Positions 3,936 through 47,748 of a DNA stretch of 64,000 nucleotides are shown piece by piece. A model generated the notes under the pieces. That model was not told the DNA's origin. It ran no database searches and saw only the letters and a program-made list of their open reading frames with translations. The stretch is from a phage. A program made the position numbers and the translations under genes. The first letter of the stretch is position 1. Each line of letters begins with the position of its first letter. Where the stretch lies: the sequence record PX880103.1. One strand, written 5' to 3'.

Positions 3936-4085
3936 TTACTGCATGACTGTGATAACTGTCATGATAACACGTTGAATTCCAAACGCAAGAAGACCTCCTG
4001 CTACGGCTGGAACAACACCTAACCCTGCCAGTAAAATGCTACCAGATACTAATGCAGCGCTTGTAATACCAATGAATGGACTCAT
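3936..4085 (-). CDS. Small hydrophobic peptide (49 aa)
   Basis: Below track cutoff; ATG overlaps gene 52 stop; MSPFIGITSAALVSGSILLAGLGVVPAVAGGLLAFGIQRVIMTVITVMQ, one or two TM helices. Confidence 0.4.
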   Translation of the reverse strand: MSPFIGITSAALVSGSILLAGLGVVPAVAGGLLAFGIQRVIMTVITVMQ

Positions 4086-5410
4086 TTGATTTCCTCTAAA
4101 TCTTTGGTGTATTCAGTAACTACATCAGTAGTTTTCCAATATTCGTTTTCTTCTTTTTTAGCTTTAGCTTCTTCAGCAAGTTTCTTTGCTTCATCGGAAG
4201 TCATATGAAAAATATTCATTCCAACTAGTTTATCAACATAAGAAGAATACATATCGATTTTCGAAAGTTCTTCGGTCAGTTCTTTACGAGTTTTACCCTG
4301 TACAACAATTTCACCTGAAATTACTTTCTTAATGAAATGTGCCTTGGCAAAGGCTAAACGAAAAGCTGACTCAGTTTCTTTAATTTTGTTATCAATTCGT
4401 TTTTGGACATAAGTTTTACGAACTTCAACAAAGTCTTTAATTAAATCAACTACGTTATCGTAAACTTGTAGTTTTCCTTTCTCATTAATAACCGTAATAT
4501 TCTGAGAACGACGCTCAATCAACCCGAAGTCTTTCATAATTTTTGCATGGCGTTCTTCTTCGTTATCGCTCAAAGAGTATTCTTTGCGGAATTTAACTTT
4601 GAAGCCAAAACCATGCTCACCACAAGCATCATCCCATGTAATGAAGCCTTTATCTTCAAGTGGGTCTAAGATTTTACTCACATAAGTTTCACGATCATAC
4701 TTGTACGGAATCTCAGTGATATGCATTTGAGTTCGTGAAGTAAACTTATATGTTCCACGAATTTCATATTGCCCATCAATTTCAACGACTTCACCGCGAA
4801 ATTCTGGGAATTCTACCTTCGGTTTAGTTACTTTCTTTCCTTGAAGAGCTTGCAGTACAGCTTTCTTGACAGAAGAAACACTATGAGGAAGAATGTAAGT
4901 TGCATAACCAGTTGCAATACCGGAAACGCCATTAAGAAGAACAGTAGGAATAATAGGCAAATAGAAAGCAGGCGGAATGTGTTCTTTATCTTGATGTACC
5001 GGAGCATATTCAGTATCTTTATATACGTTATAGAAATTTTTACTTACACGAGCAAAAATATAACGACTTGCTGCTGCTTTTTGAACGGTACGAGAACCAA
5101 AGTTTCCTTGACCATCTAACAGAGGAAAGTTATTATTCCAGGTGTTAGCCATCAAAGCGCCCGCATCTTGTGCAGAGTTTTCGCCATGGTGATATCCAAG
5201 GTCCGCTACACCACCTGCGATAGAAGCGAGTTTGTGAAACTTATCTTTATTTCCTCGCGCCAAATCAAGAGCTCGAGCAATAACAAATCGTTGAACTGGC
5301 TTAAATCCATCAATCATATTTGGAATAGCACGATTTTCAACCGTGTACATAGCATAAGCCAATGCTTCATTATCAATGATACTTTTTAAATCGCGATTAT
5401 TCAGTTGCAT
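4082..5410 (-). CDS. 52: DNA topoisomerase II medium subunit gp52
   Basis: 442 aa as in T4 gp52; GyrA-like breakage-reunion sequence; ATG confirmed. Confidence 0.95.
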   Translation of the reverse strand: MQLNNRDLKSIIDNEALAYAMYTVENRAIPNMIDGFKPVQRFVIARALDLARGNKDKFHKLASIAGGVADLGYHHGENSAQDAGALMANTWNNNFPLLDGQGNFGSRTVQKAAASRYIFARVSKNFYNVYKDTEYAPVHQDKEHIPPAFYLPIIPTVLLNGVSGIATGYATYILPHSVSSVKKAVLQALQGKKVTKPKVEFPEFRGEVVEIDGQYEIRGTYKFTSRTQMHITEIPYKYDRETYVSKILDPLEDKGFITWDDACGEHGFGFKVKFRKEYSLSDNEEERHAKIMKDFGLIERRSQNITVINEKGKLQVYDNVVDLIKDFVEVRKTYVQKRIDNKIKETESAFRLAFAKAHFIKKVISGEIVVQGKTRKELTEELSKIDMYSSYVDKLVGMNIFHMTSDEAKKLAEEAKAKKEENEYWKTTDVVTEYTKDLEEIK

Positions 5411-5414
5411 AAAT

Positions 5415-5555
5415 TTACCATACTAGTGAATGTAGTGCCATAATAACATCAGAAATGAAAAGCACGACTTGAATTAATCCGAACATTACTCCATAATATA
5501 GTGCTACCAATAAAGTAGCAAGGGCTAATGAATAGCCCAAGATTTTCTTAATCAT
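5415..5555 (-). CDS. Small membrane peptide (46 aa, 52.1 position)
   Basis: Below track cutoff; MIKKILGYSLALATLLVALYYGVMFGLIQVVLFISDVIMALHSLVW; start overlaps upstream stop. Confidence 0.4.
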   Translation of the reverse strand: MIKKILGYSLALATLLVALYYGVMFGLIQVVLFISDVIMALHSLVW

Positions 5556-5706
5556 TAGTGGATAACAACACAAATGTTAAATATGCACACATACCCTGGG
5601 CTAAAGCTTGTGAAAACACACTGCTAGCATCGATACAGATAGTTAAAACACATGCTACTATCCAACAAATAAATGAAATAACTCCTAATAATTTTGCGAT
5701 ATTCAT
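5548..5706 (-). CDS. Small membrane protein (52 aa, ac-like by position)
   Basis: Below track cutoff; GAGGAAA SD; two hydrophobic segments; T4 ac (about 51 aa) sits between stp and 52.1. Confidence 0.45.
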   Translation of the reverse strand: MNIAKLLGVISFICWIVACVLTICIDASSVFSQALAQGMCAYLTFVLLSTND

Positions 5707-5713
5707 ATTTTCC

Positions 5714-5794
5714 TCACTGACGTCCGAATACGCCTTTGGTTTTAAGATTGTTACGATAGAACTGCATCACATGTTCGTTATGGAAATTACTCAT
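5714..5794 (-). CDS. stp: Stp peptide (26 aa; activator of host PrrC anticodon nuclease in T4)
   Basis: Translation [26 protein letters not shown]; ATG overlaps ndd stop (TAATG); matches the T4 order ndd-stp-ac. Confidence 0.6.
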
Positions 5795-6249
5795 TAATAT
5801 GCCTGTAAAACAAATTTAAAGTTATCAGCCAACATACGATTCATTTCTTCAAGTGTTTGATACTCAGAATGATGATTACGAGTAAACGCCAAAGCTAACT
5901 GACCTTTTCCAAATCCCGTCGTTAGAGGTTTCATCTTAGAAGCAGGCAAATAAAACACTGTGTATGGAACATTGTTATTTGCAATAGTACGCGCAAGTTG
6001 AGACCGGCGTTGACGAATATGACTTAAAACCGCACTGAATCCTTGCTTAGAACGCTGATTACCTACATAAAATCGTGCAGATACGCATGGATTACTAAAT
6101 GGACCACCGAGTTTACTCACTAAAAAGTAAAATCCAGGTTTAGACAAAATGTCTTTGTGCGGAGTTCCCAAAAACCACTCACCACCCTTGATTGTACCAA
6201 TAACAGTAGCGCCTGCATTATTCAGATCAATAACAGTCATATATTTCAT
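5794..6249 (-). CDS. ndd: Nucleoid disruption protein Ndd
   Basis: 151 aa from ATG at 6249 (track start at 6297 is GTG inside the upstream region); GAGGAAA SD. Confidence 0.85.
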
Positions 6250-6309
6250 ATTAATTTCCTCTAAATTATTTTCTACTCCAAGGCCGCATGAATACACACG
6301 GCCATTAAA

Positions 6310-6525
6310 TTAATCGTCGCAGTCGACGCTCAATTCCCAAAACTCTTCTACAGTATAAGTTTCAGTATCATTTTCAATACAGAAACGTTCATTACTATTG
6401 TTTGCTAAAGTAGCATTAACTGTCATTTTCTCGCTAGTGCTCTTAAGAGGTGAAATACGAATTAACTGATCACCGTTATCTAAACAGAAAATTTCACCAA
6501 CTTTTACATCTTTAAAGATTTTCAT
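6310..6525 (-). CDS. Hypothetical protein (71 aa, ndd.x position)
   Basis: ATG with GAGGTGA SD. Confidence 0.55.
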   Translation of the reverse strand: MKIFKDVKVGEIFCLDNGDQLIRISPLKSTSEKMTVNATLANNSNERFCIENDTETYTVEEFWELSVDCDD

Positions 6526-6533
6526 AATTCACC

Positions 6534-6644
6534 TCAAGGAGTATAAAATCCAAATGCAGTTGTTGACCATCCCATCCAATACGGAAAATTTGCACCGATG
6601 TAAAACACGAGAATATAAAACCAAATACCCAGTAAATTCATCAT
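6534..6644 (-). CDS. Small hydrophobic peptide (36 aa)
   Basis: Below track cutoff; MMNLLGIWFYILVFYIGANFPYWMGWSTTAFGFYTP; start overlaps upstream stop. Confidence 0.35.
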   Translation of the reverse strand: MMNLLGIWFYILVFYIGANFPYWMGWSTTAFGFYTP

Positions 6645-6838
6645 TTTACACCATTCCAAATTGTTTCAACTACTGATTTTAAACCATTTTGATGAATATC
6701 CATTCCGACTACTGCCATCAAATAGATTCCAACTACAACTGAACCTAGCGCAAAAATCAGCATGAAAATGAATAAAGCCGGAAAAATATTATCGAAAAAC
6801 CATTCCATAAATGTAAAAGCACTGCGTTTACGCTTCAT
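6641..6838 (-). CDS. Small membrane protein (65 aa)
   Basis: ATG at 6838 with GAGGAAA SD (track start at 6859 is TTG); hydrophobic core. Confidence 0.5.
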   Translation of the reverse strand: MKRKRSAFTFMEWFFDNIFPALFIFMLIFALGSVVVGIYLMAVVGMDIHQNGLKSVVETIWNGVK

Positions 6839-6845
6839 ATTTTCC

Positions 6846-6959
6846 TCACATAAATCCAAAGTAAACGTTTAACACATCAATCATTAAAACGATTGGGAAT
6901 ATACTCAAAACTATTAGTATTATAACTACATTCCATATAGCTTTAATAATCTTTTTCAT
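6846..6959 (-). CDS. Small membrane peptide (37 aa)
   Basis: True ATG follows the promoter cassette GGAGGAACAGAAA; MKKIIKAIWNVVIILIVLSIFPIVLMIDVLNVYFGFM. The track's 82-aa version is the cassette read in frame. Confidence 0.45.
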   Translation of the reverse strand: MKKIIKAIWNVVIILIVLSIFPIVLMIDVLNVYFGFM

Positions 6960-6987
6960 TTTCTGTTCCTCCGTAGTTGATAGGGTA

Positions 6988-7017
6988 ATAGTACCACGGA
7001 AGAACAGTCTTGTAAAC
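6988..7017 (-). promoter_or_regulatory. Early promoter cassette (GTTTAC-N18-TACTAT plus conserved leader)
   Basis: Minus-strand GTTTAC at 7012-7017 and TACTAT at 6988-6993. Confidence 0.6.
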
Positions 7018-7024
7018 AACTTTT

Positions 7025-7123
7025 TTAAAAATATTCGTAATAAATGTGAATACCAACTACTACCGCTGAAACCTGTGCAACCCACCACGCACAAGCAATA
7101 AGTACAGAATTCATAATTTTCAT
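7025..7123 (-). CDS. Small hydrophobic peptide (32 aa)
   Basis: Below track cutoff; SD TGAGG; MKIMNSVLIACAWWVAQVSAVVVGIHIYYEYF. Confidence 0.35.
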   Translation of the reverse strand: MKIMNSVLIACAWWVAQVSAVVVGIHIYYEYF

Positions 7124-7206
7124 AATAACCTCATTACAAAAGTAAATATTAAACAAATTACTGGAATACTAATTAACCAAACAAAACACCACCACAATGA
7201 ACTCAT
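7120..7206 (-). CDS. Small hydrophobic peptide (28 aa)
   Basis: Below track cutoff; MSSLWWCFVWLISIPVICLIFTFVMRLL; overlaps the next start. Confidence 0.3.
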   Translation of the reverse strand: MSSLWWCFVWLISIPVICLIFTFVMRLL

Positions 7207-7263
7207 AGCTCAATCTCAGCGATTTTCATTTCATTCTCCAAATCCGTATCAGTTGATAGTTGT

Positions 7264-7293
7264 ATAGTACCACGGTCCTTGTGGTATGTAAAC
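7264..7293 (-). promoter_or_regulatory. Early promoter cassette with duplicated imm.1 leader and first four codons
   Basis: Minus-strand GTTTAC at 7288-7293 and TACTAT at 7264-7269; leader ...GGAGAATGAAATGAAAATCGCT is identical to the imm.1 start region (33889-33903). Confidence 0.6.
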
Positions 7294-7308
7294 TGTTTTG
7301 TGAATTTT

Positions 7309-7866
7309 TTAAATGAAAAGATACCATCCATTGTAGTTGCTTTTTCTTACAACCTTACGAAGGTCTTCTCTGTCACCGATGAACTTCGGAGTGTACTGGA
7401 TGACACCTGGATGAATTTCTTTAGTGTTGAATATAATTATACAGTCAGCGACTTGATGATTTAGAATGGGCCCTAGATTTATTCCAGAACCGTATGGATA
7501 CTCTCCGCTGCATCCTGTTGTTACAGAAATCCAACGTGAGTCAGTTTGGTGTGTCTTAACTTCTACACGAAGCCCGCAGTATTTTGGATGTGCTAAAACA
7601 TCCCATGCATATGTGTACGGATCATCGACATCTTCTTGGCCTTTATTGACATACCCGCTTAGCCAATCTGCTACAAAAAATTCTGCGTACACAGCGATAC
7701 GGCATCTTTCGATAACTTCTGCCTTATCCTGATTTGGGTTTTGTTTTAAAGAGTATCTTGCAGTATCAGCAATTTTGGCCTTCATTTCACTAGTCAAGTC
7801 ACTGTTCGATAGGGTAAATGACGGAATCTGAAATAGTCTCTGCAAACCCGGATTCGTTTTCTGCAT
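7309..7866 (-). CDS. denB: Endonuclease IV DenB
   Basis: 185 aa as in T4 DenB, between ndd and rIIB; ATG confirmed. Confidence 0.8.
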   Translation of the reverse strand: MQKTNPGLQRLFQIPSFTLSNSDLTSEMKAKIADTARYSLKQNPNQDKAEVIERCRIAVYAEFFVADWLSGYVNKGQEDVDDPYTYAWDVLAHPKYCGLRVEVKTHQTDSRWISVTTGCSGEYPYGSGINLGPILNHQVADCIIIFNTKEIHPGVIQYTPKFIGDREDLRKVVRKSNYNGWYLFI

Positions 7867-7932
7867 TTAAACTTTCCTTTTATGTCGGAATCACTGGTAT
7901 TCATATAATAAATCATAATTTCTCTTAAAACA

Positions 7933-7950
7933 AAAGGGCCGAAGCCCTTT
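7933..7950 (-). terminator. GGGCCGAAGCCC-type hairpin
   Basis: aaagggc-cgaa-gcccttt; T-run on both strands. Confidence 0.55.
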
Positions 7951-7953
7951 ATT

Positions 7954-8148
7954 TTACTTGAATTGTGCAATTCTTTTCTCTAGACATTCAGCATAAGATT
8001 TCATTGAGATAAACTGCGAAAGCAGCAGTTCTTGCTCAACTGCACTAACTGTTAGAAACTTTGCGCTTTCTAAAAATTTACTCAGTGCATTAATTTTGAG
8101 CATTAATTGATCGTATTCTTCTTTTACTCGTGCTTGATAACCTAACAT
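7954..8148 (-). CDS. Hypothetical protein (64 aa) between rIIB and denB
   Basis: ATG with AAGGAAA SD; bracketed by two GGGCCGAAGCCC hairpins. Confidence 0.55.
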   Translation of the reverse strand: MLGYQARVKEEYDQLMLKINALSKFLESAKFLTVSAVEQELLLSQFISMKSYAECLEKRIAQFK

Positions 8149-8162
8149 AATTTTCCTTAGTT

Positions 8163-8178
8163 AAGGGCCGAAGCCCTT
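8163..8178 (-). terminator. GGGCCGAAGCCC-type hairpin overlapping rIIB stop
   Basis: aagggc-cgaa-gccctt; weak T-run, may be an RNA-stability stem rather than a terminator. Confidence 0.4.
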
Positions 8179-9115
8179 ATTTAAATTGTTCAGTAACGTC
8201 TTCAACTACTTCATATTGGCAGGTACGCATTTTAGCATCGTTGTAATCAATCGGAATTGATACTACATCGCGAGGATGAACTTTAACTTTTACAACTCGG
8301 CTGGTTGAACTACCAAAGTGACGAATATAAGATTTAGAACACACATGCAGACCACGAGAACAAGTCTGTGTATCATCGTCATTCACACGAGTACGCGGCA
8401 TTTTAACTACTTTACCCGGACTGTTATCAAAGGTATTTGAGTGACAGTCAAAGTAATTGCTACGAACTACTTTCCAAGCATAGAAGTAACCATCTTCTGT
8501 AATTTCAATATCGTTTGCTACCAAGAAATCAAAGAGTCGAGATACCGCTTTTTGGCTTGGGTTTTCCAACAGATTTTCCAAGAACGGAAAATAAAATTCA
8601 AAGTTTTCGCCTTTTTCCATCGAGTCAAGAATACGATCAACCAAACCAGACCGCAATTCAATATTTTGATAGAACAAGCTTCCACCTTCAATTCGAACAT
8701 CGCCGGAAATATATTTTTCAACAGCACGACGAACATTAATTTTTTGTGCCGCTTCTTCCAACTTATCCGCTACAAGCAGATTAAGAATTTCCTGGAAGTT
8801 TGAATGAGTATTAGGAGTTGCGTTATAAGTTACGCCATCAACAGTAATTGAAATGAATTTTTTAGATGCATTCCAAATAATGTCAGATTTAGCAACTGGA
8901 GCAATAACTGCATCGCTATTAACTTTAACTGTAATATCACCGCTAATAGTAACTTTAGGGTGTTTAGCTTCTTCAGCATTTTTCAAAACACGGCGGATTG
9001 TGTCAACCGATACACCTTGCCAATCAGCCAATTCCTGTTGGGTATAATTACCACTTGAATACAGCTTAACAATTTCAGCTTGTTCGTTTTTGGTCAGGCA
9101 TTTAATATTGTACAT
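8177..9115 (-). CDS. rIIB: rIIB protein
   Basis: 312 aa as in T4 rIIB; adjacent to rIIA; ATG confirmed. Confidence 0.9.
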   Translation of the reverse strand: MYNIKCLTKNEQAEIVKLYSSGNYTQQELADWQGVSVDTIRRVLKNAEEAKHPKVTISGDITVKVNSDAVIAPVAKSDIIWNASKKFISITVDGVTYNATPNTHSNFQEILNLLVADKLEEAAQKINVRRAVEKYISGDVRIEGGSLFYQNIELRSGLVDRILDSMEKGENFEFYFPFLENLLENPSQKAVSRLFDFLVANDIEITEDGYFYAWKVVRSNYFDCHSNTFDNSPGKVVKMPRTRVNDDDTQTCSRGLHVCSKSYIRHFGSSTSRVVKVKVHPRDVVSIPIDYNDAKMRTCQYEVVEDVTEQFK

Positions 9116-38774: not shown

Positions 38775-38792
38775 AAAGGGCCGAAGCCCTTT
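38775..38792 (-). terminator. GGGCCGAAGCCC hairpin between genes 45 and 44
   Basis: aaagggc-cgaa-gcccttt. Confidence 0.5.
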
Positions 38793-44355: not shown

Positions 44356-44372
44356 AAGGGCCGAAGCCCTTT
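44355..44372 (-). terminator. GGGCCGAAGCCC hairpin overlapping alpha-gt stop
   Basis: aaagggc-cgaa-gcccttt. Confidence 0.5.
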
Positions 44373-47732: not shown

Positions 47733-47748
47733 AAGGGCCGAAGCCCTT
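47733..47748 (-). terminator. GGGCCGAAGCCC hairpin plus T-run
   Basis: aagggc-cgaa-gccctt followed on the minus strand by TTTTTGGATAAT. Confidence 0.55.

Follow-up and report, generated by a model that had tools for sequence, protein, structure and literature searches.

Conserved early genes for small hydrophobic peptides around stp and ndd in a T4-like phage: corrected gene models and possible roles at the host envelope

The T4 proteins Imm, Sp, RI and RIII, which serve superinfection exclusion or lysis inhibition, are small envelope proteins of about 80–100 amino acids (aa) that are made in the early or early-middle phase of infection and are non-essential on laboratory hosts. On the bacterial side, AcrZ, MgrB, KdpF, MgtS and CydX are peptides of 30–65 aa that have one or two hydrophobic helices, lack a signal-peptidase site and act by binding to larger membrane complexes. 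The present study concerns a block of phage genes that can be compared with both groups: the interval between gene 52 and denB (positions 5415–7293) in a 64,000-nt stretch of phage DNA (record PX880103.1; the whole stretch is called the window here), in which seven open reading frames (ORFs) for small hydrophobic peptides are grouped around the genes stp and ndd. We find that these small ORFs are real, conserved and early-transcribed, and that an initial annotation of the window was correct in pointing them out, but that they are already annotated T4 genes and not new. The peptides are smaller than Imm, Sp, RI and RIII and have no sequence relationship to them. The likeness to the AcrZ-type regulators is one of size and helix number, as all seven stay below about 70 aa and have one or two hydrophobic segments long enough for a bilayer-spanning helix; the analogy would concern the mechanism and not homology, the peptides being phage-encoded.

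The corresponding T4 region has been studied mainly through Stp, Ndd, Ac and a deletion. According to the T4 annotation and Pfam, Stp is an activator of the host's PrrC lysyl-tRNA anticodon nuclease and Ndd a disruptor of the nucleoid, and the interval is one of three T4 gene clusters for predicted membrane proteins (bioRxiv 10.1101/2025.06.30.662393). In the deletion saΔ9, the genes 52.1, ac, stp, ndd, ndd.1 to ndd.6 and denB are missing. The mutant is viable with about 50% of the wild-type yield, but it no longer stimulates phospholipid synthesis in the host, notably that of phosphatidylglycerol; Kutter et al. regarded the ndd.1–ndd.6 products as unknown and thought several of the deleted genes to be membrane-protein genes (Kutter et al., PMC6071114). 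Ac, a small membrane protein and acridine-sensitivity determinant, by itself raises the acriflavine sensitivity of E. coli by about 3 logs and makes the cells sensitive to ampicillin as well, T4Δac is acriflavine-resistant, and it has been proposed that Ac inserts in the membrane and obstructs AcrAB-TolC (bioRxiv 10.1101/2025.06.30.662393). The view of the interval as a host-interaction hotspot, which the initial annotation had put forward, agrees with this literature on Stp and PrrC, Ndd and the nucleoid, Ac, and the saΔ9 lipid phenotype. The 52-aa ORF of the window is Ac itself. It carries one extra Thr in comparison with T4 (...LLSTND), and an Ac variant with this extra Thr acts like the wild type (bioRxiv 10.1101/2025.06.30.662393). 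As the sole hydrophobic peptide of the block with a phenotype, Ac serves as working model for the other six, which have no detectable sequence similarity to it.

A further likeness exists to the hyperplastic regions and promoter-early stem-loop (PeSL) cassettes of T4-related phages (Arbiol 2010; Comeau, Arbiol and Krisch 2014, PMC4122927). In both cases small ORFs stand behind repeated early promoters; the ndd.4/ndd.5 exchange between T4 and phage PST is a described example of a promoter cassette (PMC4122927), and the junction of denB and ndd.6 shows cassette replacement between phages, being occupied by a gene of 87 aa or one of 68 aa, or deleted. No significant stem-loop of the PeSL type was found in the 57 nt upstream of either early promoter of the interval (P_E1, −2.8 kcal/mol, z = 0.38; P_E2, −6.4 kcal/mol, z = −1.37). 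In other genera, a hairpin and a promoter are found together upstream of ndd. Unlike the PeSL ORFans, the families of 52.1, ndd.4 and ndd.3 are conserved across genera.

Correspondence with T4 and gene models

The elements of the interval and its flanks are as follows (TM, transmembrane; SD, Shine-Dalgarno sequence).

4082–5410, minus strand: gene 52, flank
5415–5555, minus strand: 52.1, 46 aa
5548–5706, minus strand: ac, 52 aa
5714–5794, minus strand: stp, 26 aa
5794–6249, minus strand: ndd, 151 aa, nucleoid disruption protein
6282–6303, minus strand: GC-rich hairpin in the 60-nt spacer between ndd.1 and ndd, followed by TTGGAG and the ndd SD
6310–6525, minus strand: ndd.1, 71 aa, acidic soluble protein, predicted to form a small SH3-like beta-barrel plus a C-terminal helix
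6534–6644, minus strand: ndd.2, 36 aa, one hydrophobic segment
6641–6838, minus strand: ndd.3, 65 aa, basic N-terminus and TM segment
6846–6959, minus strand: ndd.4, 37 aa, N-terminal MKKIIK, then one TM helix
6988–7017, minus strand: early promoter P_E2, GTTTACAAGACTGTTCTTCCGTGGTACTAT, upstream of ndd.4, exact motif match
7025–7123, minus strand: ndd.5, 32 aa, single hydrophobic helix with aromatic C-terminus
7120–7206, minus strand: ndd.6, 28 aa, single hydrophobic helix
7203–7229, minus strand: mini-ORF MKIAEIEL, 8 codons, with SD GGAG at 7236–7239
7264–7293, minus strand: early promoter P_E1, GTTTACATACCACAAGGACCGTGGTACTAT, upstream of ndd.6, exact motif match
7309–7866, minus strand: denB, flank

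The minus strand carries every gene of 4082–7866, and the coding fraction of 5415–7229 is about 92%; position 5415 belongs to the stop codon of 52.1, and position 7293 to the −35 element of the upstream promoter. The ORF lengths listed in the initial annotation (46, 52, 36, 65, 37, 32 and 28 aa, plus 26 aa, 71 aa and ndd) are exact, its gene calls for 52, stp, ndd and denB agree with the T4 alignment, the T4 annotation and Pfam, and the small TM peptides, SD sequences, ATGA/TAATG couplings and two promoters that it described are all present.

A megablast search with 5300–7400 gave matches in 575 phage records. T4 aligned over 100% of the query with 97.1–97.3% nucleotide identity in at least 8 T4 records, the identity across the interval being 97.2%. 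Compared base by base over 2.1 kb, the two sequences differ in 61 alignment columns, by substitutions and by small indels. The phage of the window is a Tequatrovirus, to which the database records are all at most about 97.6% identical over 9 kb. The genes 52.1, ac, stp, ndd and ndd.1 to ndd.6 correspond one to one to T4 genes with order and orientation kept, and the protein identities in tblastn are 97% for 52.1, 96% for ac, 100% for stp, 98% for ndd, 97% for ndd.1, 88% for ndd.2, 96% for ndd.3, 100% for ndd.4 (37 aa), and 96% each for ndd.5 and ndd.6. The initial annotation had called the micro-proteins "extra", which must be abandoned: each is an annotated T4 gene with an existing PHROG family, and two are also found in Pfam DUF families. 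All ten products match existing PHROG families (for example, ndd.6 phrog_8851, ndd.5 phrog_5011, ndd.2 phrog_4135, ac phrog_2501) and several match Pfam families, while a NCBIfam scan of the nine small proteins gave no match. Ndd matches PF06591 (Phage_T4_Ndd) with 304.3 bits (cut-off 25) over residues 1–151, and Stp matches PF08133 (Nuclease_act) with 75.3 bits (cut-off 25) over residues 1–26 of 26. As the Stp sequence is identical to that of T4, activation of the latent anticodon nuclease PrrC can be expected in prr+ hosts.

The mismatches of ndd.3 and ndd.4 with the T4 reference stem from the reference and not from the phage of the window. In the T4 record AF158101 a single base is missing at window position 6833, inside ndd.3, and AF158101 and NC_000866 annotate two overlapping genes at this place, ndd.2a (40 aa) and ndd.3 (26 aa). 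In resequenced T4 (HM137666, MT984581 and OL964735) the base is present and ndd.3 is annotated with 198 nt, and an intact 65-aa ndd.3 is found in 18 of 19 close relatives (three other T4 records and 15 relatives). Pfam DUF7248 matches ndd.3 with 73.4 bits (cut-off 27), residues 5–63 corresponding to positions 3–57 of the 58 in the model, and because this match spans the N- and the C-terminal parts, the undivided 65-aa protein is the norm of the family; phrog_2401 likewise covers ndd.3 over its full length. Behind the split in AF158101 is either an error in the reference sequence or a frameshift specific to that strain. In the case of ndd.4, the upstream ATG of the 42-aa T4 model is present only in four T4 strains and is ACG in the 15 other relatives. 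The SD GGAGGA is found 7 nt before the downstream ATG in all of them, and the T4T annotation agrees exactly with the window in the 65 aa of ndd.3 and the 37 aa of ndd.4. By these comparisons, a 65-aa Ndd.3 and a 37-aa Ndd.4 are the right gene models. The split of ndd.3 propagates in annotations, as in RB7, where a 40-aa protein is labelled "ndd.2a". Several phage records and protein clusters call homologues of Ndd, Ndd.1 and Ndd.4 "naphthalene 1,2-dioxygenase" (for example YP_009619074 of phage Sf21, which is the 37-aa Ndd.4), an obvious propagated annotation error.

Chance, selection and conservation

Small TM ORFs were defined as non-overlapping, ATG-initiated frames of 25–90 codons with a hydrophobic 17-residue window. 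There are seven of them on the coding strand of 5415–7293 and one on the antisense strand, and 300 dinucleotide-preserving shuffles of the interval yielded a mean of 1.37 ± 0.97 and never more than 4. Each of the seven micro-ORFs contains one or more 17-residue windows whose mean Kyte-Doolittle hydropathy is at least 1.8 (range 1.8–3.4), and their grand average of hydropathy is 0.8–2.0. The 19 close relatives keep the ORF lengths, the exceptions being four defects that each affect a single record: a truncated ac, the ndd.3 frameshift of AF158101, an ndd.4 without ATG and an ndd.6 frameshift; in addition, ndd.2 starts one codon later in three of the 19 records. Intact copies of ndd.6 are present in 18 of the 19 relatives, and of ndd.5 in all 19. 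Pooled pairwise ratios of nonsynonymous to synonymous differences (pN/pS) among the close relatives are 0.03 for stp, 0.04 for ac, 0.06 for ndd.3, 0.08 for ndd.1, 0.10 for ndd.5, 0.12 for ndd, 0.15 for ndd.2, 0.16 for ndd.6, 0.26 for 52.1 and, from only 11 variable sites, 0.62 for ndd.4. The annotated frame has a lower pN/pS than both other frames in seven of the ten genes.

More distant relatives were collected as 36 viral contigs with an Ndd relative plus one annotated Gaprivervirus record, and 30 loci were used in which Ndd is only 46–66% identical and both flanking genes are included (one of the 30 duplicates the same phage). Homologues were assigned per family by jackhmmer, without overlaps between families; single-linkage BLAST clustering was discarded, as it spuriously merged the hydrophobic peptides 52.1, ndd.3 and ndd.4. 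Among the 30 divergent loci, homologues were found for 52.1 in 27, for ndd.4 in 21, for ndd.3 in 14, for ndd.1 in 10, for ac and stp in 9 each, for ndd.2 and ndd.6 in 8 each, and for ndd.5 in none. Eight of the nine small genes thus recur in other Tevenvirinae genera in the same order, which runs ndd.6, ndd.4, ndd.3, ndd.2, ndd.1, ndd, stp, one to four two-segment peptides, 52.1 and gene 52, so that peptides with a single hydrophobic segment sit upstream of ndd and two-segment peptides between ndd and 52. Across the 30 loci, 128 small TM ORFs are on the coding strand and 15 are antisense. Each family has a conserved motif of its own: VLFISDVI and a terminal Trp in 52.1, MKK.LKAIWN...D in Ndd.4, GLKSVVExIWNG after the TM segment in Ndd.3, WCxxW..IPxIC in Ndd.6, and an aromatic GxNxxYWxG in Ndd.2. 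Synonymous sites between the lineages are largely randomized (pS 0.4–0.9), and the conservation of the peptides is therefore selective. A lack of conservation in related phages, which the initial annotation had named as the result that would speak against its reading, is clearly not what the 19 relatives and the 30 divergent loci display. Taken together, four independent lines of sequence evidence, namely the excess over chance, the integrity of the frames, selection and deep conservation, indicate that the small ORFs are real genes. 52.1, Ndd.4 and Ndd.3 are the most widely conserved and would rank best as candidates for peptides with a conserved host target.

The 52.1 peptide is almost wholly hydrophobic and matches Pfam DUF7396 with 81.9 bits (cut-off 27) over residues 1–46 of 46. 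The named homologues in DUF7396 come from T4-like phages of Escherichia, Shigella, Klebsiella, Enterobacter and Salmonella, the single exception being a 24-residue fragment labelled Xanthomonas campestris. AlphaFold2, run with 30 sequences, predicts one unbroken helix for residues 2–45 (pLDDT 96). Between coliphage genera, pN is 0.04–0.06 for 52.1 in comparison with 0.12–0.20 for gp52 and 0.26 for Ndd, and pS is 0.36–0.42, about half the value of about 0.7 for the neighbours; some recent exchange of 52.1 is therefore possible. When Tequatrovirus is compared with other coliphage genera (loci L006, L008, L009 and L012), the 52.1 protein is 86–93% identical, in contrast to 69–81% for the essential gp52 and 62% for Ndd, and the identity of 52.1 falls to 27–60% in Klebsiella and Enterobacter phage lineages. 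The conservation of 52.1 may track the host instead of phage phylogeny.

Promoters, translational coupling and neighbouring elements

The motif GTTTAC-N15-TGnTAYWAT has 17 matches in the window, all on the minus strand, in comparison with 0.17 expected, and two of these, P_E1 and P_E2, fall inside the interval. The motif conforms to the T4/PST early-promoter consensus TTTACW...N17...TAYWAT (PMC4122927), and the two copies match the sigma-70-type, MotA-independent class of T4 early promoters. P_E1 is also marked by a generic sigma-70 scan, with an extended −10 TG, P_E2 is nearly invariant in the 19 relatives, and the two promoters have CCGTGGTACTAT...CTATCAACT in common (repeat D3). Transcription probably starts early at P_E1 and P_E2, for which the T4 transcript classes give indirect support: in the entries of Table S2 of Wolfram-Schauerte et al. 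(PMC9697503), the T4 transcripts of ac, stp, ndd, ndd.1, ndd.2, ndd.2a and ndd.3 to ndd.6 belong to the early class, and the proteins Ndd and Ndd.1 are found early by mass spectrometry.

The genes are tightly linked at the level of translation signals. GAGG or GGAGG SD sequences precede ac, ndd, ndd.1, ndd.3, ndd.4 and ndd.5; ndd.6 and ndd.5 share an ATGA, as do ndd.3 and ndd.2, ndd and stp share a TAATG, the overlap of ac with 52.1 amounts to 8 nt, and the stop codons of stp, ndd.4 and ndd.2 are contained in the SD of the next gene (GTGAGG). The SD of ndd.6 is weak, and the stop codon of the mini-ORF overlaps the ATG of ndd.6 (ATGA). As the cistrons are chained by stop codons within SD sequences or by ATGA/TAATG overlaps, they should be co-translated in the first minutes of infection. 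Transcription is thus documented in T4, and translation of the peptides is predicted from sequence evidence; a literature search for ribosome profiling of T4 retrieved no study.

An Rfam scan of 5000–8200 detected no known RNA family, the sole match being a chance miRNA (E = 0.28). The 81-nt stretch 6250–6330 that includes the hairpin at 6282–6303 has a folding z of −2.84. In most divergent lineages, the 90 nt upstream of ndd (L006–L037) contain a GC-rich hairpin followed by GGAG/GAGG, an A-rich stretch and TTGAGGAAATTAATATG, and the stem sequence is wholly different between lineages. The loop holds the TATAAT of a GTTTAC early promoter in several genera, and in T4 and the window the hairpin is without a −35 element. 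RegB cuts at GGAG, and the hairpin may be an mRNA processing site, possibly for RegB, or a stability element.

At the junction of denB and ndd.6, most relatives have an 87-aa gene (MKFKFYYAKHK...NEMKIAEIEL), and RB7, ESh26 and EP01 have an unrelated 68-aa gene (MFTTAELKRAK...). T4 and the window have lost the 87-aa gene by an in-frame collapse between two AATGAAA repeats. To judge from this comparison, the mini-ORF MKIAEIEL is the remnant of the 87-aa gene, with its SD retained and coupled to ndd.6 by ATGA. A 42-aa ORF at 7203–7331 that overlaps denB was rejected as a gene, as its frame crosses the promoter and is broken by a frameshift in T4; a real initiation site corresponds to no more than the final 8 codons.

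Beyond the limits of the interval, a 49-aa hydrophobic ORF (MSPFIGITSAALVSGSILLAGLGVV..., 3936–4085, minus strand) directly downstream of gene 52 is T4 motA.1, and the run of small membrane-type genes therefore exceeds the interval boundary. In addition, the window contains five identical copies of a 16-nt palindrome, AAGGGCCGAAGCCCTT (7934–7949, 8163–8178, 38776–38791, 44356–44371 and 47733–47748), with 0 expected. On the minus strand it corresponds to a GGGC-UUCG-GCCC tetraloop hairpin, and two of the copies exactly bracket denB.1 (7954–8148), the locus L003 having only one copy. The copies look like classic T4 intercistronic UUCG hairpins, and the bracketing suggests a cassette.

Possible functions at the host envelope

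We consider it probable that the block is an accessory early operon whose seven hydrophobic peptides sit as helices in the inner membrane, where they retune functions of the host envelope. P_E1 and P_E2, possibly with upstream read-through, would drive a polycistronic early mRNA. From this, soluble effectors would be made, with Ndd compacting the nucleoid and Stp activating PrrC in the cytoplasm, and Ndd.1 as a small beta-barrel, and 52.1, Ac, Ndd.2, Ndd.3, Ndd.4, Ndd.5 and Ndd.6 would insert as alpha-helices into the host inner membrane. GenBank carries old PSORT-style labels such as "outer membrane" or "periplasmic"; such locations are unlikely, because the peptides are helical and without cleavable signals. 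Once inserted, the peptides may bind and retune host envelope proteins, for example in efflux or lipid synthesis, with Ac as the model, and at least one gene of the block would cause the phage-induced stimulation of phosphatidylglycerol synthesis. That the peptides bind and modulate a host membrane complex is suggested by analogy, with phenotypic support for Ac alone, and it is a reasonable inference that 52.1 or ndd.2 to ndd.6 could likewise act as modulators of host proteins or defence, as the initial annotation had proposed. The module is dispensable on laboratory hosts and probably conditionally useful.

Several points weigh against this reading. The membrane topology calls come from a simple hydropathy rule, and for 52.1 this rule gives two segments in contrast to the one long helix of AlphaFold2, so that the peptide may be either a single tilted membrane span or a hairpin around the conserved YYG. 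The pN/pS of ndd.4 is high among close relatives, as given above with its few variable sites, and no ndd.5 homologue outside Tequatrovirus was detected by jackhmmer in the 30 divergent loci. In the entries of Table S2 of the T4 proteomics study, Ac, Stp and Ndd.2 to Ndd.6 are not among the proteins detected by shotgun proteomics (PMC9697503), although small hydrophobic proteins are expected to be missed by mass spectrometry. The link between Ac and AcrAB-TolC is a preprint proposal from phenotypes and a predicted structure (10.1101/2025.06.30.662393), host partners of 52.1 and Ndd.2 to Ndd.6 would be hypothetical, and the saΔ9 phenotype could belong to ndd, denB or stp.

Alternatively, the peptides could serve the phage's own membrane programme, that is superinfection exclusion, lysis timing, sealing after injection, or the anchoring of replication or assembly, as analogues of Imm, Sp, RI, RIII or rIIA/rIIB. 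The block adjoins denB.1, rIIB and rIIA, the latter annotated in T4 as "membrane integrity protector" genes, it is transcribed early like imm and sp according to entries of Table S2 (PMC9697503), saΔ9 halves the burst even on laboratory hosts and alters lipid synthesis, for which Kutter et al. considered a possible membrane repair (PMC6071114), and 52.1 is kept in nearly all sampled Tevenvirinae loci whatever the host. We nevertheless regard this explanation as rather unlikely, as the Pfam and PHROG family scans showed no similarity to Imm, Sp, RI or RIII, Ac alone affects drug permeability or efflux of the host in uninfected cells (10.1101/2025.06.30.662393), and the content of the block varies between genera in a cassette-like manner, a pattern that is commoner for host-adaptive genes. 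A different proposal would be that the peptides are depolarizing or pore-forming toxins of the type I toxin or holin-like kind that aid host shut-off by collapse of the membrane potential; peptides of this kind are usually under the control of a dedicated antisense RNA or antitoxin. Their size of 28–65 aa and strong hydrophobicity would fit Hok/TisB/Ibs-type toxins, and predicted TM proteins were among the hypothetical proteins of another T4-related phage that are toxic to E. coli (PMC6893735). Ac expression alone sensitizes to drugs and does not kill (10.1101/2025.06.30.662393), deletion of the block lowers the phage yield and does not raise it (PMC6071114), and no antisense RNA or other known RNA family was detected in the interval by the Rfam scan. 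This makes such a function improbable, all the more when the needs of the phage are considered. T4 infection requires an energized membrane for DNA entry and for about 25 minutes of metabolism, and early depolarizing peptides would therefore harm the phage itself.

Two further explanations would deny the peptides a role of their own. Some of the ORFs could mainly be translational relays or leaders, in which the act of translation and not the peptide sets the expression of downstream ndd and 52. The extreme coupling, with stop codons in the next SD and ATGA/TAATG overlaps, is what such relays would look like, and the mini-ORF, a deletion remnant, still has its SD and its ATGA overlap; yet a pure relay would need neither the purifying selection on the peptides (pN/pS 0.03–0.26) nor the family motifs that are kept across genera at randomized synonymous sites, and we judge this explanation very improbable. 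That the ORFs are chance frames in AT-rich spacer DNA between promoter cassettes is hardly credible. They are short and do not appear among the detected proteins in the proteomics entries mentioned above (PMC9697503), and AT-rich DNA favours Phe, Ile and Leu codons, but seven frames were observed against 1.4 ± 1.0 in the shuffles and one antisense, the purifying selection is frame-specific, the frames are intact across the 19 relatives save the four single-record defects, and they are conserved across genera, so that chance is effectively refuted.

Returning to the retuning of host envelope functions, a more far-reaching version may be considered, which we put forward as a tentative possibility and think less likely to be right than wrong. 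In this version, the peptides that flank ndd would be a conserved membrane take-over module of the Tevenvirinae, with the one-segment peptides Ndd.6, Ndd.4, Ndd.3 and Ndd.2 upstream of ndd and the two-segment Ac-like peptides and 52.1 downstream, each inhibiting or activating a different host inner-membrane machine, and one of them, with 52.1, Ndd.4 and Ndd.3 as the best conserved, being the phosphatidylglycerol determinant. If this were true, the conservation of 52.1 among coliphage genera above that of the adjacent essential topoisomerase subunit would reflect its binding to a conserved E. coli protein.

In summary, the genes, their hydrophobic character, early expression and dispensability have been present in T4 annotation and reviews for two decades. 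The comparative ranking and the corrected ndd.3 and ndd.4 models are useful for the design of deletions or tags. The phenotype of phage-induced phosphatidylglycerol synthesis maps within 3.4 kb, and with Ac the block may supply a naturally occurring inhibitor of an important multidrug efflux pump.

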